A program made the position numbers and the translations under genes. 64,000 nt of DNA, taken from assembly GCF_002854065.1 (NCBI RefSeq), contig NZ_CP024151.1; one strand, written 5' to 3'. Within the stretch, counting starts at the first letter, position 1; each line of letters starts with the position of its first letter. The notes below the pieces were generated by a model. It did no database searches. It saw nothing but the letters and a program-made list of their open reading frames with translations, and was not told where the DNA came from. This document shows, piece by piece, positions 41,212 through 60,114 of this stretch. This DNA comes from Escherichia coli (GTDB taxonomy: Bacteria > Pseudomonadota > Gammaproteobacteria > Enterobacterales > Enterobacteriaceae).

Positions 41212-41721
41212 ATGAAAAAATGGATGTTAGCCATCTGCCTGATGTTTATAAATGAGATCTGTCTGGCCACTGATTGCTTTGATCTTGCAGGCAGGGATTA
41301 CAAAATAGATCCTGATTTACTGAGAGCAATATCATGGAAAGAATCCCGTTACCGGGTTAATGCCATCGGTATTAATCCGGTAACGGGATATGGCAGCGGA
41401 CTGATGCAGGTAGATTCCCAGCATTTTAACGAACTGGCCCGCTATGGAATTAAGCCGGAACATCTGACAACAGATCCCTGCATGAACATTTATACCGGTG
41501 CTTATTATCTGGCAATAGCCTTTAAAAAATGGGGCGTCTCCTGGGAGGCCGTTGGTGCATACAATGCCGGATTCAGGAAAACCGAACGCCAGAACCAGAG
41601 ACGTCTTGCCTACGCATCAGATGTTTACCGGATTTATACCGGGATAAAAAGCAGTAAAGGTATCCGGCTTCCGGCCACGAAGAAATCACTTCCGGAAATT
41701 AACAGCGAGCAGAACAATTAA
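41212..41721 (+). CDS. Lytic transglycosylase (orf169/geneX/P19 type), first gene of the leading region
   Basis: 169 aa from [12 protein letters not shown] (signal peptide) with SLT-like core ...[14 protein letters not shown]...GLMQV...AYNAG; SD GAGGTGGG before ATG 41212. Confidence 0.85.
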
Positions 41722-41974
41722 TCTTACAGACATTGTCAGATACCGGTTATGCCGCAAAAGCGGCATGGAAGGCCACACACAAAAATATCATATGAGTGAC
41801 AATACTGACTGGCCGAAGCCCCGCGAAGCGGGAACCCATCTTATATATACCCGGTAACTGCGCAGCCTCCTGCCAGACCATTTTTCGCGGGCACAATATT
41901 TACAGACAACCGGAAAGCCGGTTGATGAAATCGAGGTATATCAGACGACACAGCAATGCCGAAAAATGATAATA

Positions 41975-42957: not shown

Positions 42958-43245
42958 TCAGCAGATCGCCCGGATATCGAGGCCGGCACGCTTAATCTGA
43001 CGCAGGAACTGTTTGAAGTGATCGGCTTCCGCAATGTTGATATGGCGGAACTGCTTATCCACACCCTGACTGAGCGCGTAGCTATAACTGAAGGCCATCT
43101 TTTCCGGGTGGCTTTTGCGATATTTTTTCAGCTCAGTCAGGCTGCTGAATTCCAGGACGTCCCACTCTTCCCCGGTGTTTTTTTTCTTCCCGGCAACAAG
43201 AAGCGTGTACGACGCGGTGTTAACGTGGATATTTCGGGTACTCAT
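42958..43245 (-). CDS. Small leading-region protein (DUF905-like), unknown function
   Basis: 95-aa ORF directly downstream (in transcription sense) of Frpo-like repeat copy 1. Confidence 0.6.
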   Translation of the reverse strand: MSTRNIHVNTASYTLLVAGKKKNTGEEWDVLEFSSLTELKKYRKSHPEKMAFSYSYALSQGVDKQFRHINIAEADHFKQFLRQIKRAGLDIRAIC

Positions 43246-43261: not shown

Positions 43262-43885
43262 TCTGGTTTTCAGCCCCCATCATCTGTTGAGTTTCGGGAG
43301 CCGCGGTTTTGACGTTTTGCGGGGACCTGCCTTTTGTTCCCTCCGGTATTCACCATCACCTTTTTGAGAACCTTCGCCGCAAGGGGCATCACTGCCACGG
43401 CCGGAAACGACTGTCCGGGGGCAGACCGCAAAAGTTTTTGCCTGCTTTTGAGCAAAAAGTTTTGCGGGATGTGCATTTCACCCCTGGACTGGCGGAGACG
43501 GTTGTGGCTGTCTATGCCCCCGGCGACAGGGGCTTAAACAGGTGAATGGCACCGGACACAACAACGGGCAGGGACCCGCCGCAACGACGTGAAGCGCGGT
43601 TTGCGAAACGGCGTTGCCCCTTACATCCCGGCGGCCTTTTGCCGGGATGCCGGGAGCGCAGGCCACGGCGCGACAGAGGCGGCGCGACCGGAACGGTCGC
43701 TGCAAGCCCGGGGTTTTCACGCATCGGACCGTAGCGACAGCCCGAAACCGCGCCAGCGGGTTCGGCGGAGACTGGCAGGTGCGCCAGCAGCTGCCTGTCG
43801 GAGTCGGGTCTGACGACCGGATGCCGCCAGGCAGCCGGGAGCCGAAGGTGCGCCCGGCAGACAGGACAACACTGCAGTAGTCAGA
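43262..43885 (+). repeat. Dispersed leading-region repeat, copy 1 (Frpo/ssi-like candidate single-strand promoter)
   Basis: About 620 bp, roughly 98% identical to 48604..49220 by eye; GC-rich with many inverted repeats; non-coding despite multiple track ORFs on both strands. Confidence 0.6.
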
Positions 43886-48603: not shown

Positions 48604-49220
48604 TTTCAGCCCCCATCATCTTTTGAGTTTCGGGAGCCGCGGTTTTGACGTTTTGCGGGGACCTGCCTTTTGTTCCCTCCGGTATTCACCATCACCTTTT
48701 TGAGAACCTTCGCCGCAAGGGGCATCACTGCCACGGACGGAAACGACTGTCCGGGGGCAGACCGCAAAAGTTTTTGCCTGCTTTTGGGCAAAAAGTTTTG
48801 CGGGATGTACATTTCACCCCTGGACTGGCGGAGACGGTTGTGGCTGTCTTTGCCCCCGGCGACAGGGGCTTAAACAGGTGAATGGCACCGGACAGAACAA
48901 CGGGCAGGGACCCGCCGCAACGACGTGAAGCGCGGTTTGCGAAACGGCGTTGCCCCTTACATCCCGGCGGTCTTTTGCCGGGATGCCAGGAGCGCAGGCC
49001 ACGGCGCGACAGAGGCGGCGCGACCGGAACGGTCGCTGCAAGCCAGGGGTTTTCACGCATCGGACCGTAGCGACAGCCCGAAACCGCGCCAGCGGGTTCG
49101 GCGGAGACTGGCAGGTGCGCCAGCAGCTGCCTGTCGGAGTCGGGCCTGACGACCGGATGCCGCCAGGCAGCCGGGAGCCGAAGGTGCGCCCGGCAGACAG
49201 GACAACACTGCAGTAGTCAG
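48604..49220 (+). repeat. Dispersed leading-region repeat, copy 2 (Frpo/ssi-like), upstream of ssb
   Basis: Near-identical to copy 1; immediately 5' (in minus-sense) of ssb, the classical position of the F Frpo element. Confidence 0.6.
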
Positions 49221-51964: not shown

Positions 51965-52575
51965 CCCGTTGAGTTTCGGGAGCCGCGGTTTTGACGTTTC
52001 GCGGGAACCTGCTGCTGTATTCCCTGTGGTATGAACTTCACCCGTTTGAGAACCTTCGCCGCAAGGGGCATCACTGCCACGGCCTGACGCACCTGTCCTG
52101 GGCAGAACGCAAAATTTTTTACCGGGTTTTGGGTAAAAAATTTTGTGGGCTGTTCATTTACCCTGGACAGTCAGTGCGGCAGGTTGTGGCTGTATCAGCC
52201 CCCGGCGACAGGGACTCATACGGGTGTGTGGCACCGGCAGGCAATGAGCAGGGACCCGCCGCAACGACGGAGAGCGCGTGCGCGAAACGGCGTTGCCCCT
52301 TACATCCCGGCGGCCTTTTGCCGGGATGCCGGGAGCGCAGGCCACGGCGCGACAAGGGTGGCGCGACCGGAACGGTCGCTGCAAGCCCGGGGTTTTCACG
52401 CATCGGACCGTAGCGACAGCCCGAAACCGCGCCAGCGGGTTCGGCGGAGACTGGCGGGTGCGCCAGCAGCTGCCTGTCGGAGTCGGGCCTGACGACCGGA
52501 TGCCGCCAGGCAGCCGGGAGCCGAAGGTGCGCCCGGCAGACAGAACAACACTGCAGTAGTCAGAATCAGAGCAGC
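51965..52575 (+). repeat. Dispersed leading-region repeat, copy 3 (Frpo/ssi-like), 5' half diverged
   Basis: 3' about 330 bp near-identical to copies 1 and 2 (CCCGCCGCAACGAC...GCAGTAGTCAGAATCAGAGCAG); 5' half recognisably related but diverged. Confidence 0.6.
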
Positions 52576-53433: not shown

Positions 53434-53859
53434 TCAGTCCAGAGCCGCGTAAATCGCGTTGCATTCGGGGTGAAATTCGATGTGACGCCACAACTGCGCA
53501 TCGCGCATCCGGTAAAGCTGGGTCAGTCCTGCATCCCCGCTGTCGTGGTACAGCCACAACTGGCGGTTAATCACAAGGGAGGTCAGGATGATGCCTGCGG
53601 CATCAGCACTCACGGTACGGTCAAACCAGTTTGCACCGTTCACCATGTGGAAACGGTCGCCATCCGGCATCATGTAACCGCCACCGTCCGGCAGGCGGAT
53701 GAAGTGCCAGAAGCCTCCCTGATATTCCGGCATCATTTTTTGCGCCAGCGCGTACACATACGCCTCGGCATACAGAAAATCGTTGCCAAACAGATACGGC
53801 AGAAAGGAGAGACGGTCGCACTCTTCAACATTCAGAGTGACAGGTTTCGCATATTGCAT
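53434..53859 (-). CDS. klcA: KlcA/ArdB-family antirestriction protein
   Basis: 141 aa; ...[21 protein letters not shown]...[18 protein letters not shown]...[27 protein letters not shown]...[12 protein letters not shown], the conserved KlcA/ArdB pattern as I remember it. Confidence 0.85.
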
Positions 53860-54275
53860 GATGTTTTCCTCCGTTGTTCACATATTCCGCGACACCGGGC
53901 GGTGCCGTGCCTCCATAAAAGCCGGGCGAACAGGCGGGGATGCAGGGGCGCAAGGGAAGCCGCAGCCTGACGCACACGGCTGACGGGAGTTGCAGGGTGA
54001 GACCGCGAAATCTGAGCGGGTGAACGACCGGAAAATCACGGCAGACGGGAAGGAGGGACCGGGTGACCGCAGCGGCGAAGCGTACCCTTGCATCAACGCC
54101 AGCCCGGCTAAGATGGAGGCACGGCACAGCCCGCACACGACGCTGAGGCCACATAACTGAAAAACCACAAGGCCATGCCCTGCATGGCCGGGTAAAGCGG
54201 AGCCGGCGGCGACTTCCTTTGTGCTCTGTCCGGGGACCGGCAGGAAAAAGGCGGGGATTTACCCCGCCAGTGTCA

Positions 54276-55103
54276 TCATTTCCGGATTTTTGCCAGGGCA
54301 TCCGCCATGCTGCGGATTTCGGTCCGGGCTTCCCGGACCACCTCCCGCAGAACACCACGGTCAAACCAGCGGCGGGGCGGTTCATCCGGTATACGCAGCA
54401 CATCGCAGGCCAGCCCACTGGACAGGATATGCTCAATACACTCACTGACCAGATACATTTCCACCGACGAAAAACGTGCTCCCCGGTTCACGATGGCATC
54501 GAGCACCACGGGCAGGTTTTCGTCATCTTCATCGAGCCAGCAGGGGTGATCGCTTTCCTTCACGACCAGGCGAAAGCGGCGCGTCTGGCGGGTCAGCAAC
54601 GTCTGACCGGTGGTGGTCAGCGCCGCACGGATACGCCGCGCATCTTCTGCCACCTGGTAACAGATGCTTCGTACCGCATCGTGCACCGCATCAAGAACAG
54701 CCTTGATTTCGTCTTCGGTCAGCCATTCTCCGGCATACGGGAAAGACACCTGCGTTCCGTCTGCCGGAAGTACCGGCAGCGACTGCCACTGACTGCCGGA
54801 CAGTACCAGTTCCGCCCCGGTTCCGGTCAGTCTCTGAATGGCGGAGGCCAGGAGCGGCGGCAGTACGCCGCCGTGACGGTTGATAAGTAACGTCGCCAGC
54901 CGGGGCGCATCCAGCCGCACGTAAATGCTGATCCAGCCCGGATAGTTCGGATTTCGCTGGTCAACATCCGTCTCTTCCGGCCAGTCCTGCGCCAGCAGCA
55001 GGTTACGGGCGTGACGACAAATCAGTGCGTTCAGCGTGCTGTTTTCGTTCATGATTAAGCGTTCTCCCTGTATCGCCGCCCGCAGGGCAGGCGGCGATAA
55101 CAT
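54276..55103 (-). CDS. Hypothetical protein, about 258-275 aa (leading region)
   Basis: Track ORF; alternative start at 55052 ([10 protein letters not shown]...). Stop/start abuts the upstream paralogue-B gene. Confidence 0.6.
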
Positions 55104-55537
55104 CAGTTGTTTTCGTGTGTGTTGTTTTTCAGCAGGGTGCGGGCCTGATTAACCACCGCCTGACGGCGGGTAACGCATTCCGGGACGGCGAGGCCGTTAT
55201 CACGGGCGGCCCACTCACGTTTCCACAGTGCCTGTTCAGCGGTCTGAATCAGGGACGCCAGCAGTTCAGCAGGGACGGTCACCTGGCGGTTTTCGCTCAC
55301 GTTGCTGATAATCTCCATCACCGCGGCGGAAGAAATACCGGATTCAGTCCGCTGGTCTTCCGGGATGTCCTCCATGCGCGCCAGGACGGTCCTGATTTCA
55401 TGATCGGTCAGAGAAATTTCCATACCGTCAGCCAGTGCCTGAATCTCTTCCGGGGACCAGATAACCAGCATCAGCGGCGCGTCTCCCGGATACTTTGCTG
55501 CCAGCTCCCGGCATAGCGTTTCGCATGTTCCGTACAT
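55103..55537 (-). CDS. Hypothetical acidic protein, 144 aa (paralogue B)
   Basis: Paralogous to 52953..53387 (same length, MY.T..E..RE N-terminus, ...LTD.E..TV..R..D..., RQVTVPA core); near-identical RBS context (AAGGAGACGAGAA-ATG). Confidence 0.65.
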
Positions 55538-55550
55538 TCTCGTCTCCTTC

Positions 55551-55772
55551 TCAATCTTTGAAGCAGGAATCCAGTTCCAGAATTTCGGTATACGCCTCCA
55601 TAAACAGGCGATTGGCGCGATACAGCGTCTGGCGTGTCAGGCGTTCAACAAGCACATCGGAATCAAAGCGACAGCGATGCTCCATATCGTTCAGCCTAGC
55701 CCGAAGGTCACACATGGTGTTGGCCACCTCCGCCACGTCGGCGCGAAGTTTTTCGTGTCCGGCATAGTTCAT
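55551..55772 (-). CDS. Hypothetical small protein, 73 aa
   Basis: ORF immediately downstream of the methyltransferase gene (adjacent stop/start). Confidence 0.45.
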   Translation of the reverse strand: MNYAGHEKLRADVAEVANTMCDLRARLNDMEHRCRFDSDVLVERLTRQTLYRANRLFMEAYTEILELDSCFKD

Positions 55773-56456
55773 TTACGCAGCCTCCGGTTCAAACCAGTTA
55801 TCATTCGCGGCCCCCTGCTGCATGGCCCGTTGCACGGCGGCCAGTCGTTGCTGTCCGGCACGGTGATACTGTTCAAGCAGCTCGATACCGATATACCGGC
55901 GTCCGGACTGGAGGGCGGCCACGCAGGTTGAGCCGCTGCCTGCAAACGGGTCCAGCACAATCGCGTTCGGATGTGTGAAGCTCTCAATCAGTGGTTGCAG
56001 GCTGGTAACGGGCTTTTCCGTCGGGTGATGGCGGTTGCCCGAATATTTCCAGCCCAGCACGTCGGGTAATGGCTTCGGAGGCAGCGCCGGACGGCCTTTT
56101 GCCAGGATATAGGCGCATTCGTGACGGTACGCGACATACGCAGATTTGGATGTGTAGCTTTTGGTGAACACAAGGTGCCCTACAACGCTGAATCCGGCGC
56201 GTTTCCAGGCTGCCATAAAGCGGTCAATACGGTTCCAGCCATAGAAACTCACCATCAGCGCATCTTTTTTTAGTACGCGGTACATCTCATTACTGGCAGG
56301 TTGCAGCCAGTCATCGTTAACGTCACCGGCAATGGTGCGCCCGGAACGGTCACGAAAACCAACGAGATATGGTGGGTCGGTTAAGATGAAATCAATGGCG
56401 TTATCAGGAATCGTGGCCATAACACGCACGCAGTCACCCAGGATAAAACGGGACAT
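55773..56456 (-). CDS. Orphan DNA methyltransferase, beta class (N6-adenine or N4-cytosine; YhdJ-like)
   Basis: 227 aa; motif IV DPPY near the N-terminus (..DFILTDPPYLVGF..), HPTEKP, and motif I DPFAGSGST near the C-terminus, the circularly permuted beta-class order; no adjacent restriction endonuclease candidate. Confidence 0.85.
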   Translation of the reverse strand: MSRFILGDCVRVMATIPDNAIDFILTDPPYLVGFRDRSGRTIAGDVNDDWLQPASNEMYRVLKKDALMVSFYGWNRIDRFMAAWKRAGFSVVGHLVFTKSYTSKSAYVAYRHECAYILAKGRPALPPKPLPDVLGWKYSGNRHHPTEKPVTSLQPLIESFTHPNAIVLDPFAGSGSTCVAALQSGRRYIGIELLEQYHRAGQQRLAAVQRAMQQGAANDNWFEPEAA

Positions 56457-56841
56457 AACAGCACTCCTCCTCTTACAGAGGGCACCGGGAGGGCGCCCCT
56501 GTGGCGCCCGTTCTCCGCTGCCTGTGGGCTGTTCACCGCGTCCGGTAACGGGTCAGGCCGACCGTGGAATACCGCAGCCGTCGTCTTTCTGACGGCGAGG
56601 ATATGCCGCGAAAGCGGCTTGAAGGGCATTCATCAGAAAAGGGCGACAGGCTGGCGTACACTGTCACCGACGCCAGCCAGGAGCGGTAAAAGCGCCCGTC
56701 CCGTGCCCGGCCGGACACGGGACACTGACCACAGGCAGCGTTCCTGCCGCGCCGCGTCAGCCGGCGCAGTAAAAAGAGGAGCACGGCGACATCCTTTGTC
56801 GGAAAAGAAACGGGCGGTTGCCCGCCCGTCTCCGTCATACT

Positions 56842-57768
56842 TCATCCGCCATAATGCGCCACCTTGTCGACTATCCACGCAGGTCCGGTGACTTCCGGCA
56901 GCTCATCGTCATCTGTCGGGGAAGACCATTCAAGTTCCCCCCACAGCACATCAACGAGCTCTCCACGCTCATACAACTGCCAGCCACAGAAATTGCAGCC
57001 TTGTTCGGCGTACCAGTGCTCCAGCGTGCAGCTGAAACGGCGGCTTAATTCTGCAACAACGTCGCTTTCCGGCTGACACCACGGCGTGTCGAAATCCACC
57101 TGAATGAAGTTTTCTCCCTGACTGCTGATATTCAGGTCATACCCACAAGGCCACTTCACGCCATACCGTTCGGTATACCAGTGATATGCAGAAGGAACAC
57201 CGTTCAGAACACCACCGTTAAAGCCATTCACTTCAACATCCAGGCGGGTCGGCAGAACCGTCAGCAGGTCAAACGGCATGGTTTTTTCCGGCAGCACGTT
57301 GTCACACAGACGGTTCCACCACACCGATACATCCTCGTTACCCCAGATGTCACACCAGTCACCTCTTTTTGCGGTGAAATGCACAGTGATGATTTCCCTG
57401 ACATCATCCGGTAATCCTTCCCAGCGACGCTGTCCAGTACCGCTCTGCAGCCAGAGTTTATGCAGCATCAGGCAGTTTTGCTCATCCAGCAGTACACCGT
57501 CCTGCAGGTATGTCAGCCAGCGGGTGAACGCGATATTCTCCGGCGATACAACGCCACGCCCGGCAGCCGTCAGTCCGGGGCATGGTTCAAACCGCACATC
57601 TTCAGTGGTCTGCAGAAGTCCGGCACTTCCGGCCAGAAACAGCTGAATACCTTCATTTGTGGCGCGGCGATAAAGCGGTGTGACTGCACCGCTGGCCAGT
57701 CGTTTAATCTCAGCAATCTGTGCCGGTTCACCAGAAAAATGCATACGATTTGAGCACCAGTTTGGCAT
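56842..57768 (-). CDS. Conserved leading-region protein (DUF1281-like), unknown function
   Basis: 309 aa from MPNWCSNRMHFSGEPAQIAEIKRL...; SD AGGAGA before ATG 57768; Trp/Cys-rich. Family name from memory. Confidence 0.7.
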   Translation of the reverse strand: MPNWCSNRMHFSGEPAQIAEIKRLASGAVTPLYRRATNEGIQLFLAGSAGLLQTTEDVRFEPCPGLTAAGRGVVSPENIAFTRWLTYLQDGVLLDEQNCLMLHKLWLQSGTGQRRWEGLPDDVREIITVHFTAKRGDWCDIWGNEDVSVWWNRLCDNVLPEKTMPFDLLTVLPTRLDVEVNGFNGGVLNGVPSAYHWYTERYGVKWPCGYDLNISSQGENFIQVDFDTPWCQPESDVVAELSRRFSCTLEHWYAEQGCNFCGWQLYERGELVDVLWGELEWSSPTDDDELPEVTGPAWIVDKVAHYGG

Positions 57769-58122
57769 GGGAATTCTCCTCTCACATGCGGCCTCTATCA
57801 GGCCGTGCCGCACCTGTAACCGGGCGACCGCATACGAATGCAGGTGCGGCCCCGAAGCCGCAGCGCGTGGAGGAGGAACGACGAAACGTGACCGGGTGAG
57901 GAGGCCGGCGACAGCGACACACTTGCATCGGATGCAGCCCGGTTAACGTGCCGGCACGGCCTGGGTAACCAGGTATTTTATTCACAGAACCGTGCGCAAA
58001 ATGCTGTGGATAAGCTGGACACAGCAGTCCACAGCAGGCATACAGCCACACCCTCAGAGAATTGAGCGTTTTTTAGTCACAATAATGACATTTGACTGTG
58101 TGTGGATTCAGTTATTAGAATG

Positions 58123-58138
58123 CTGTATATACATACAG
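58123..58138 (+). promoter_or_regulatory. LexA (SOS) box overlapping the promoter of the dinI/umuDC-like operon
   Basis: CTGTATATACATACAG (CTGT-N8-ACAG) immediately downstream of TTGACT (58092..58097) and TAGAAT (58116..58121) with 18-bp spacing. Confidence 0.8.
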
Positions 58139-58161
58139 CAATAGAAAAGGGAGATGAGAAC

Positions 58162-58410
58162 ATGATCCGCATTGAAATTCTTTTCGACCGCCAGAGCACA
58201 AAAAACCTCAAATCAGGCACACTTCAGGCGCTACAGAATGAAATCGAACAACGTCTGAAACCACACTCCCCGGAAATCTGGCTGCGTATAGACCAGGGCA
58301 GCGCCCCGTCTGTATCTGTCACAGGAGCCCGCAACGACAAGGATAAAGAACGTATCATGTCTCTGCTGGAAGAAATCTGGCAGGACGACAGCTGGCTGCC
58401 TGCAGCATGA
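58162..58410 (+). CDS. DinI-family protein (ImpC-like)
   Basis: 82 aa from MIRIEILFDRQ...; resembles DinI; SD AAGGGAG before ATG 58162; first gene of the SOS-box operon. Confidence 0.75.
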   Translation: MIRIEILFDRQSTKNLKSGTLQALQNEIEQRLKPHSPEIWLRIDQGSAPSVSVTGARNDKDKERIMSLLEEIWQDDSWLPAA

Positions 58411-58844
58411 GTACCGTTTATCACCGTCCGGCTGACCCTTCAGGCGATGACAGTTACGTGCGACCGTTGTTTGCCGATCGTTGCCAGGCCGGTTTTCCTT
58501 CGCCTGCCACTGATTATGCTGAGCAGGAACTGGATCTGAACAGCTATTGCATCAGCAGACCTGCAGCCACCTTCTTTCTGCGCGCCAGCGGTGAATCGAT
58601 GAACCAGGCTGGCGTGCAGAATGGTGATCTGCTGGTAGTGGACAGGGCCGAGAAACCACAACACGGGGACATCGTTATCGCTGAGATCGACGGTGAGTTC
58701 ACCGTCAAACGACTGCTGTTGCGCCCACGCCCGGCACTGGAGCCGGTTTCAGACAGCCCGGAATTTCGCACACTGTATCCGGAAAACATCTGTATTTTTG
58801 GTGTTGTCACTCACGTGATACACAGGACGCGGGAGTTACGCTGA
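58407..58844 (+). CDS. UmuD/ImpA/MucA-family protein (LexA-like S24 peptidase, Pol V accessory subunit)
   Basis: 145 aa; C-terminal peptidase-S24 region with ...RASGESMNQAGVQNGDLLVVDRAEKPQHGDIVIAEIDGEFTVKRL...; overlaps dinI-like stop. Confidence 0.88.
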   Translation: MSTVYHRPADPSGDDSYVRPLFADRCQAGFPSPATDYAEQELDLNSYCISRPAATFFLRASGESMNQAGVQNGDLLVVDRAEKPQHGDIVIAEIDGEFTVKRLLLRPRPALEPVSDSPEFRTLYPENICIFGVVTHVIHRTRELR

Positions 58845-60114
58845 TGTTTGCACTGGCTGATATCAACAGTTTCTACGCCTCATGTGAAAAAGTTTTCCGC
58901 CCGGACCTTCGCAACGAACCGGTCATCGTACTCAGCAATAACGATGGCTGTGTGATCGCGCGCAGCCGGAGGCAAAAGCCCTTGGCATCAGAATGGGGCA
59001 GCCCTGGTTTCAGGTGAGACAGATGCGCCTGGAGAAGAAAATACATGTATTTTCCAGCAATTATGCGCTGTACCACAGCATGAGCCAACGGGTCATGGCT
59101 GTTCTGGAGTCGCTTTCTCCCGCAGTTGAGCCCTACTCAATTGATGAAATGTTCATTGATTTGCGGGGGATAAATCATTGCATCTCTCCGGAGGTTTTTG
59201 GTCATCAGCTCAGGGAACAGGTAAAGAGCTGGACAGGACTCACCATGGGGGTGGGCATTGCGCCTACAAAAACGCTGGCTAAAAGTGCACAGTGGGCAAC
59301 AAAGCAATGGCCACAGTTTTCCGGTGTGGTCGCGCTGGAGGCAGAAAACCGTAATCGGATCTTGAAGCTACTGGGGCTGCAGCCAGTTGGTGAGGTCTGG
59401 GGAGTAGGACGCAGACTGACGGAAAAGCTGAATGCGCTGGGTATTAACACAGCACTGCAGCTGGCGCAGGCTAACACGGCATTCATCCGGAAAAACTTCA
59501 GCGTCATTCTTGAGCGTACGGTACGCGAACTCAACGGCGAGTCCTGCATATCCCTGGAAGAAGCACCACCGGCAAAACAGCAGATTGTCTGTAGTCGCAG
59601 TTTTGGTGAACGAATCACAGACAAAGATGCCATGCACCAGGCTGTTGTTCAGTATGCAGAGCGGGCCGCAGAGAAACTACGTGGGGAGCGTCAGTATTGC
59701 CGGCAGGTGACGACATTTGTACGGACATCCCCCTTTGCAGTAAAAGAACCCTGTTACAGCAATGCCGCTGTGGAAAAGCTTCCATTACCCACACAGGACA
59801 GCCGGGACATTATTGCCGCAGCATGCAGAGCGTTAAACCATGTCTGGCGTGAAGGGTACCGCTATATGAAGGCAGGAGTCATGCTGGCTGATTTCACACC
59901 ATCGGGTATAGCGCAGCCGGGATTATTTGATGAGATCCAGCCCCGTAAAAACAGCGAAAAGTTAATGAAAACACTCGATGAACTGAACCAGTCTGGAAAA
60001 GGGAAAGTGTGGTTTGCGGGGCGAGGAACCGCCCCTGAATGGCAAATGAAACGGGAAATGCTCTCGCCTTCGTATACAACACAATGGACTGAGATCCCCA
60101 TTGCTTCATTCTGA
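58844..60114 (+). pseudogene. UmuC/ImpB/MucB-family Y-family DNA polymerase gene interrupted by a -1 frameshift near 58960
   Basis: N-terminus MFALADINSFYASCEKVFRPDLRNEPVIVLSNNDGCVIAR is in one frame (58844 onward, stops at 59017); the rest (AQPEAKALGIRMGQPWFQ... to ...TQWTEIPIASF) continues in another frame from about 58960 (track ORF 58993..60114). Confidence 0.7.

Follow-up and report, generated by a model that had tools for sequence, protein, structure and literature searches.

Six single-strand promoters have been defined in the plasmid pESBL by RNA-seq of early transconjugants combined with 5' rapid amplification of cDNA ends (RACE), and the accessible text of that report sorts them into class 1 (ssi1-3, which are Frpo-like), class 2 (5' of klcA and ardA) and class 3 (5' of M.EcoGIX), with the transcription starts of the klcA and ardA hairpins mapped by 5' RACE (Wen et al., NAR 2025, PMC12672017). 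Samuel et al. (Nature 2024) give further candidate single-strand promoters in their Supplementary Table 2, where these appear in the orientation of the + strand of the sequence under study. That sequence, hereafter the window, is a 64,000-nucleotide stretch of Escherichia coli contig NZ_CP024151.1 (assembly GCF_002854065.1). We characterized a long hairpin on its + strand (57799-57963), located in a 393-nt spacer (57769-58161) that separates the start of a DUF1281/yfdA-family gene from impC (58162), the head of the LexA-controlled impCAB operon. By sequence comparison, the hairpin is a short-form member of the class 2 family of single-stranded-DNA (ssDNA) promoters, which includes the klcA and ardA copies in pESBL and ssp2 in F. 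Promoters of this kind allow a conjugative plasmid to turn on protective genes as soon as it reaches a new cell. We put the probability at roughly 65% that it acts as a class 2-type ssDNA promoter, driving DUF1281/yfdA from the incoming strand and falling silent in duplex DNA.

The window was found to be the leading region of an IncF plasmid. Over 501 bases, the locus agrees at 100% identity with IncF plasmids such as NZ_CP080082, and more than 4600 plasmid records contain a match. In NZ_CP080082, traM and the origin of transfer (oriT) lie to the left of the locus, and all genes from there to DUF1281 are on the - strand (hok, psiB, ssb, a klcA-type antirestriction gene, a DNA methylase and DUF1281 itself); the unit that comes after DUF1281 consists of a dinI-like impC and umuD/umuC-like genes on the + strand. 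In conjugation, the transferred strand passes into the recipient with its 5' end first and the leading region ahead, and the leading genes are read from this strand. With oriT to the left and all leading genes on the - strand, the + strand of the window serves at once as transferred strand and as template.

A long covarying hairpin ahead of the DUF1281 gene

When the + strand of the spacer was folded as DNA (397 nt), we obtained -81.7 kcal/mol (z-score of -5.1), a value that was equalled by 0 of 100 shuffles. The long imperfect hairpin at 57799-57963 has two arms of 27 nt each (57799-57825 and 57937-57963) that are 81% complementary, with pairing that extends further inward; the base-pair probability of this stem is about 0.9, and the hairpin folded alone gives -50.3 kcal/mol. 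A small hairpin, CCTGG-gtaa-CCAGG followed by ATTTTATT (57959-57974, + strand), sits at its foot as a terminator-like match. A long-range stem had been put forward in the original prediction, which was made from the sequence alone, on the strength of nine complementary bases, and the stem proved real and far longer. The same prediction had nested a local 10-bp inverted repeat within it (57807-57816 with 57841-57850). The sequences concerned are all present (GCCGCACCTG at 57807, CAGGTGCGGC at 57841, GGCCGTGCC at 57801 and, one base away from the position first given, GGCACGGCC at 57953-57961), yet the local stem is an alternative fold on the + strand with an ensemble probability of 0.004 and essentially never forms. 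It has 57807-57809 in common with the 9-bp arm, and its whole left arm lies inside the extended arm 57799-57825. Since both stems use the same left arm, they are mutually exclusive, and a probability of 0.004 compared to about 0.9 indicates that the hairpin is single and long rather than nested. By our own arithmetic, about three perfect 10-bp inverted repeats at such spacing are expected by chance per 64 kb.

Homology to described ssDNA promoters extends over the whole structure. Three candidates of Samuel et al. (Frpo'4, Frpo*1 and Frpo*3) and the spacer upstream of the klcA-type gene in the window (53900-54128) align with the hairpin from end to end, and the five aligned sequences share 70 invariant columns. 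The right-arm motif GCCCGGYTANNNTNNNNNCACGGC was found in the window in both arms of the hairpin and in both arms of the klcA-upstream element (four matches compared to 0.08 expected), and in pESBL (pHUSEC2011-1, 99.5% identical here) in the ardA, klcA and DUF1281 spacers. A scan of the genome collection with a 15-base motif returned mostly chance matches, and only Enterobacterales loci proved real after nhmmer. With one genome per species scanned, the nhmmer filter left 33 distinct members from Pantoea, Kosakonia, Siccibacter, Cedecea, Yersinia, Buttiauxella, Salmonella arizonae and Enterobacter, and a metagenome scan contributed 163 further members of the family. A leave-one-out nhmmer profile, built from 30 other members with the hairpin and its orthologue excluded, matches 57802-57960 at E=7e-15 (model positions 11-231).

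The fold itself is conserved through compensatory change. A 32-sequence family alignment yielded 39 consensus pairs, 36 of which are formed by the hairpin, and compensatory changes were noted in 21 of the 39. Paired cells account for 93.2% in this alignment compared to 34-41% with slid partners, and its covariation score of 0.357, compared to about 0.05, was reached by none of 500 shuffles. A Shine-Dalgarno sequence and an ATG follow on the complementary strand after all 33 unique members, 20-45 nt beyond the left end of the hairpin; in the window copy they lie 31-38 nt from the hairpin foot. The genes placed in this way are klcA, ardA and M.EcoGIX-like methylases, together with a DUF1281 homologue in Pantoea brenneri.

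We then located the bases that a promoter would require. The 3' (non-template) arm carries a -35-like TTGCAT (57923-57928, + strand), the TTG of which is conserved in the 32-sequence alignment, and, 15 nt further on, a -10-like TAACGT (57944-57949, + strand), the T, A and last T of which are conserved or invariant in the family (TAnnnT). Across the family, the TTG and TA...T of the 3' arm are kept at a fixed spacing, and the rest of the -35 hexamer covaries with the left arm. The interval from -35 to -10 measures 15 nt on the non-template arm and 19 nt on the template arm. The middle AC of TAACGT falls within a small 2x3 internal loop, at a place where the klcA copy has a 4x4 bubble. In duplex form, the gene-ward strand reads CTGCAT and TACAGG at the same sites, without the TTG and the final T, and a scan of the spacer for a duplex sigma-70 promoter of DUF1281 found none. 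The original prediction had suggested an ssi-type priming site or an early promoter; its direction was right for the hairpin, which is a homologue of ssDNA promoters first isolated as ssi, although the TTGCAT and TAACGT had gone unnoticed.

It was noted that one plasmid variant (NZ_CP073590.1) differs in the left arm, where at window positions 57810-57821 GCACCTGTAACC is changed to GGCACGTTAACC, which complements the right arm exactly. The change has the appearance of a quasipalindrome correction by which the -10 loop is closed, and it suggests that the two arms interact in vivo.

The gene that follows (56842-57768, - strand) was already described as DUF1281-like in the original prediction, and Pfam agrees, with matches to DUF1281 (E=1.5e-48) and to DUF1281_C. 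It encodes 308 amino acids beginning MPNWCSN, from an ATG at 57768-57766 that is identical to the DUF1281 start annotated in pESBL, and a Shine-Dalgarno sequence, GAGGAG (57776-57781, - strand), is placed 7 nt ahead of this ATG. Past the stop codon, an intrinsic terminator (GACGGGCGG-gcaa-CCGCCCGT followed by TTCTTTTCC; 56802-56831, - strand) was read from the sequence; it was not among the outputs of a simple terminator scan. With this terminator of its own, DUF1281 is a one-gene unit. In a supplementary table that lists leading-region families of the largest size, DUF1281 is number 27 with 1949 members, and its orientation here is that of the T-strand families of the same study, in which all anti-defence, methyltransferase, SSB and toxin-antitoxin genes among the 300 largest leading-region families are located on the T-strand (Samuel et al., Nature 2024).

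We propose that the hairpin works in the following manner. The + strand would enter the recipient single-stranded, 5' end first, and this segment would fold back before the complementary strand is synthesized. Transcription would run from the loop to the foot, with the 3' arm acting as the non-template strand that presents TTGCAT and TAACGT and the 5' arm acting as the template. Counting 7 nt past the -10 and projecting onto the paired template arm gives a predicted transcription start at 57804-57808 on the - strand (about 57806, a template T opposite A57956). From there, sigma-70 RNA polymerase would head leftwards out of the hairpin foot and produce a putative 38-nt leader with the GAGGAG ribosome site, followed by DUF1281/yfdA as far as the terminator of that gene. 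Copying into duplex would remove the hairpin, leave CTGCAT and TACAGG on the gene-ward strand and end transcription; the arm mismatches would thus remove the bases that sigma-70 needs, which is how we propose that the unit is silenced after conversion. If active, the hairpin would add one early promoter, for a total of seven in pESBL and five in F; it is present in more than 4000 sequenced Enterobacteriaceae plasmids, and the gene that it would drive belongs to one of the thirty largest uncharacterised leading-region families.

Conservation, published promoter lists and other readings of the hairpin

The hairpin is conserved in related plasmids, being at least 99% identical in 3797 of the best 5000 plasmid records and present also in F (next to sopC) and in pESBL. 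Between the window and F, identity is 100% in the leader and 98.8% in the hairpin, compared to 94.6% in the DUF1281 coding sequence, 89.2% in the right flank and 88.5% in the methylase gene, so that nothing in the neighbourhood is better conserved than the hairpin and leader, which exceed even the coding sequences on either side. This degree of conservation is not expected of a decaying, non-functional class 2 copy next to a DnaA box that matches by chance, and we regard such an explanation as very unlikely. All promoter-critical bases are kept, a diverged orthologue stands ahead of DUF1281 in Pantoea, and the DnaA pair described below recurs in independent spacers. Decay would fit with the weaker -10, the lower folding energy, the split yfdA frame of F and the absence of the hairpin from the promoter lists in the accessible parts of the published reports; substitutions among eight sequence variants also do not significantly avoid the DnaA box at 58005-58013 (0 observed compared to about 1.2 expected).

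Several of these points also weigh against the promoter reading. We repeated the published discovery scan on pESBL with the criterion of Wen et al. (300-nt windows, DNA parameters, cut-off of -75 kcal/mol) and recovered exactly six regions below the cut-off, at -83 to -100 kcal/mol; the best window over the hairpin reaches only -73.1 kcal/mol and falls outside. In the accessible text of the two reports, six induced operons are described in pESBL, where not every leading gene is induced (PMC12672017), and four single-strand-promoter operons are described in F (Fraikin et al., bioRxiv 2026), and the hairpin is listed in neither set. The TAACGT is a weaker -10 than the TAAGAT of class 2 and is held in a 2x3 loop, not in a 4x4 bubble, and the non-template spacer is just 15 nt. 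Finally, the yfdA frame is split in classical F. With respect to the first of these points, the -75 kcal/mol value is a search threshold and not a biological definition, and a fixed folding-energy cut-off overlooks short family members.

In classical F (NC_002483.1, 6853-7781), the DUF1281/yfdA frame is broken into two parts of about 168 and about 145 amino acids. Upstream of the split gene, the hairpin and the DnaA boxes are intact and adjoin sopC.

The repeated scan also separated this hairpin from its nearest published neighbour. The sixth strong pESBL hairpin is located between DUF1281 and the methylase. We considered whether the hairpin at 57799-57963 could be the published class 3 'M.EcoGIX' promoter and rejected this identity, because the sixth hairpin lies elsewhere, the family profile has no match there and DUF1281 has its own terminator. 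The positions obtained on refolding, the value of -73.1 kcal/mol and this terminator together indicate that the hairpin is a separate unit that has not been listed. In the window, the + strand at 56457-56845, directly upstream of the methylase, folds to -108 kcal/mol (z-score of -7.6) and most likely corresponds to the class 3 promoter already published. An open reading frame (ORF) at 56533-56838 (- strand), annotated as 'hypothetical protein' in many records, sits within this structure and is probably not a gene.

An alternative role for the hairpin was also considered. According to the accessible text of Fraikin et al. (bioRxiv 2026), the homologue ssp2 halts the nascent 3' end exactly at the end of the stem, delaying conversion until UvrD resolves it, and a parS site at yfdA in F converts 60-90 s late; this site is upstream of ssp2, and its timing is unaltered by ssp2 deletion. 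The hairpin at the locus would be the first structure met by such synthesis on entry to the leading region, and the only one before yfdA. Its position at the outer edge of the leading region would thus make it the first obstacle to complementary-strand synthesis and a candidate cause of the yfdA delay in F. It is tentatively possible that the hairpin is mainly structural, a roadblock to maintenance-side synthesis that keeps the leading region single-stranded for longer, with weak or absent promoter activity, and its absence from the induced operons in the accessible published text would be in keeping with this. A pure roadblock, however, would have no use for a TTG and TA...T kept at a fixed spacing, and it would leave DUF1281, which has its own ribosome site and terminator, with no other promoter that we could find. 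The hairpin is also shorter than ssp2-type copies (166 nt compared to 229 nt) at about -50 kcal/mol. The two roles are compatible and do not exclude one another: alongside the promoter function that we favour, the hairpin would probably, by analogy with ssp2, stall complementary-strand synthesis as it arrives at the leading region's distal edge.

Convergent DnaA boxes on the 3' side of the hairpin

The original prediction had pointed to a perfect DnaA box at 58005-58013, and this box was recovered (box B; TTATCCACA on the - strand, TGTGGATAA on the + strand) and found to be invariant in eight sequence variants. It is a feature separate from the hairpin, being one of a conserved convergent pair just 3' of it. 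The partner, box A, is TTATTCACA (57978-57986, + strand), which agrees at 8 of 9 positions and fits TTWTNCACA; F and most variants carry another allele, TTGTCCACA, also at 8 of 9. Box A lies 18 bases to the left of box B in the opposite orientation. The suggestion that DnaA regulates the promoter found no link. The box stands clear of the hairpin, 3' of it on the transferred strand, and has no overlap with either hexamer.

We assessed whether such a box would be expected by chance and concluded that it probably is not a chance match. The window contains three perfect DnaA boxes compared to about 0.5 expected per 64 kb on both strands, and by our own arithmetic the chance of a perfect box within the 393-nt spacer is about 0.003. 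It was also noted that the 95-nt flank with the boxes accompanies the hairpin even where sopC stands in place of imp. Another perfect box, at window position 43055, lies inside a coding region and is without a good partner.

Similar pairs were encountered in other plasmids. In plasmids of Pantoea, Buttiauxella, Yersinia and Cedecea, a related hairpin is followed, 76-87 nt to its 3' side, by the arrangement TT(G/A)TCCACA-N27/28-TGTGGA(T/C)AA. Across 951 kb of metagenome loci, 40 such pairs were found in 39 loci, and 18 of the 40 follow a class-2-like hairpin at a distance of 76-87 nt on its 3' side. The control set, 873 kb of unrelated loci, contained one such pair. When up to one mismatch per box was allowed in the 951 kb, 25 pairs were convergent (0.5 expected), three were direct (1.0 expected) and one was divergent (0.45 expected). 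Examples among the metagenome loci (numbered L131-L250) are L246 1945-1990 and L209 8312-8357, and further convergent pairs lie at L105 8693-8738, L079 11048-11093 and L119 3014-3058. About one convergent pair is found per plasmid region or locus examined, and conservation within those spacers is highest in the boxes. R46 (IncN) was also examined for a DnaA-box pair and has none. In our literature search, no description of DnaA boxes in leading regions came up, nor any of convergent pairs beside such hairpins.

Boxes A and B can pair at 9 of 9 positions through one wobble with both alleles, the wobble falling here at the degenerate N of TTWTNCACA. On the incoming strand, such pairing would place a duplex DnaA box in a stem, the defining layout of an ABC-primosome A site in an ssDNA hairpin, where DnaA would bind and load DnaB-DnaC; DnaB would then move on the transferred strand in the 5' to 3' direction, leaving the leading region behind, while primase made primer after primer on the entering DNA. 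We consider this unlikely to be what the pair does, although the excess of convergent pairs beside related hairpins (25 compared to 0.5 expected, with three direct and one divergent), the conservation of the boxes and their recurrence once per plasmid region all fit with it. The accessible text of Fraikin et al. (bioRxiv 2026) adds that conversion outside the leading region is continuous, rifampicin-insensitive and repeatedly primed, with the initiating host factors unexplored there. Against this stand the energies of the local fold. An inverted repeat (TGCTGTGGA / TCCACAGCA, 58002-58036) joins box B to a weak third box, C (58027-58035), through 9 bp, and the fold prefers B-C at -14 kcal/mol to the weak A-B hairpin at -4 kcal/mol, with just 6-7 bp of box duplex in B-C. 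Moreover, inverted boxes are complementary by construction, so that hairpin potential in itself proves nothing, and the absence of a pair from R46 counts in the same direction. Classical work also reportedly described recipient conjugal DNA synthesis in dnaB(ts) recipients, which speaks against an A site.

We also looked for covariation between the arms of the pairs and found none, as both arms are invariant and the fully complementary A/T combination at box position 3 was never seen. Without covariation in the arms, a single-strand hairpin that contains a duplex box is inseparable from two ordinary duplex sites. Invariant boxes that do not covary are what protein recognition on duplex DNA would give, and the lack of covariation counts against the A site. 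In an established plasmid, the boxes might act on duplex DNA as a roadblock or insulator between units, as a modulator of the imp/umuDC-like operon or in DnaA titration, a role that we hold to be somewhat doubtful. It would agree with the finding that Pantoea-type plasmids have the pair between the end of an operon and the next promoter, and with a second lineage (Enterobacter Ag1, S. arizonae and Klebsiella pBSI010) in which a single perfect box, in the same orientation, stands upstream of umuD in an unrelated spacer. F-type plasmids, however, retain the boxes though sopC and not imp comes next, the strictly convergent arrangement (25 compared to three and one) has no obvious reason on duplex DNA, and the boxes are about 80 nt away from the imp -35.

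The single perfect boxes of this second lineage are found about 130 nt ahead of umuD (L009 8415, L057 3874 and L126 15884) and read TGTGGATAA on the coding strand of that gene. In these Enterobacter, S. arizonae and Klebsiella plasmids, the box falls at the boundary of the leading region, in a spacer whose sequence is unrelated to that of the window.

In its most specific form, the A-site reading holds that the pair, placed past the last single-strand promoter, is a natural A site that launches a DnaA-dependent DnaB-primase primosome with the entering DNA, away from oriT. This is quite unlikely in our estimation. If true, it would account for the continuous, rifampicin-insensitive and repeatedly primed conversion outside the leading region, and the leading region, being 5' of the loading site and behind roadblock hairpins, would stay single-stranded and be transcribed for longer. 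The convergent DnaA pairs offer a testable handle on how the host begins to copy the incoming strand.

On the far side of the boxes, the neighbouring SOS promoter noted in the original prediction was confirmed as TTGACT-18-TAGAAT (58092-58121, + strand), which belongs to impCAB and lies outside the element. The palindromic LexA box of this promoter, of the form CTG-N10-CAG, is CTGTATATACATACAG (58123-58138, + strand), and the product of impC is DinI-like. The umuC-like impB (58844-60114) is present as two overlapping ORFs (58844-59017 and 58993-60114) without coding-sequence annotation in an identical plasmid, and is probably a frameshifted pseudogene.

Comparison with described promoters and priming sites

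We compared the locus with the other elements of its kind in the window and with those in the literature. On the + strand, the window carries a copy of F ssiE (41716-41904), class 1 Frpo/ssiD copies (43274-43623, 48610-48959 and 51971-52302) and the long class 2 hairpin upstream of the klcA-type gene (53900-54128). A conserved motif, GGAGC..GCGAC(A/T)TCCTT, lies between the terminator of one leading-region unit and the next promoter hairpin at 54199-54219 and at about 56779-56797; it is found in the right flanks of most family members and is absent from the flank of the 57799-57963 hairpin. A search with Rfam 15 covariance models over 53500-58500 on both strands gave no match at E<=1.

Blastn queries with class 1 sequences (F ssiD and ColIb ssi1-3) reached a best E=0.2 against the hairpin, although they do pick up three class 1 copies at other places in the window. 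We therefore rejected a common origin with class 1 Frpo, ssiD or ssiE, since no sequence similarity was found with queries that recover their own copies. The proposed mode of action resembles that of class 1 Frpo, ssiD and ssi1-3 (Masai and Arai 1997) in outline, in that a stem-loop on the transferred strand rebuilds a -35 and a -10 for host RNA polymerase, drives early leading-region genes and is silent in duplex.

The likeness of the DnaA pair to the ABC-primosome A site (Masai et al. 1990) is one of layout. A full DnaA box can be accommodated in the stem of the A-B hairpin, on DNA which in vivo is single-stranded, but in the predicted fold this weak hairpin loses to B-C.

Closer relatives are found among the candidates from the insect-gut metagenome, namely Frpo*1 and Frpo*3 (short form) and Frpo'4 (long form), which can be aligned over the whole hairpin (E=2e-8 for Frpo*1). 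These are likewise computational predictions, they come from other plasmids with other downstream genes, and Samuel et al. (Nature 2024) credited the short-form candidates with 'limited similarity' to known Frpo.

The closest described systems are the class 2 promoters, klcA and ardA in pESBL and ssp2 in F. The hairpin shares with them homology in both arms, a long covarying structure on the transferred strand, the TTG and TA...T of the 3' arm with a 15-nt non-template and a 19-nt template spacer, and a placement immediately ahead of a leading-region gene for which the transferred strand is the template. It differs in being about 63 nt shorter at the apex (166 nt compared to 229 nt), in carrying TAACGT in a 2x3 loop where class 2 has TAAGAT in a 4x4 bubble, in just missing the -75 kcal/mol cut-off and in driving, as we propose, the one-gene unit DUF1281. 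The class 2 copies in pESBL have mapped starts, whereas the promoter described here is a predicted one that would stand beside the six units of pESBL and the four of F named in the accessible published text.

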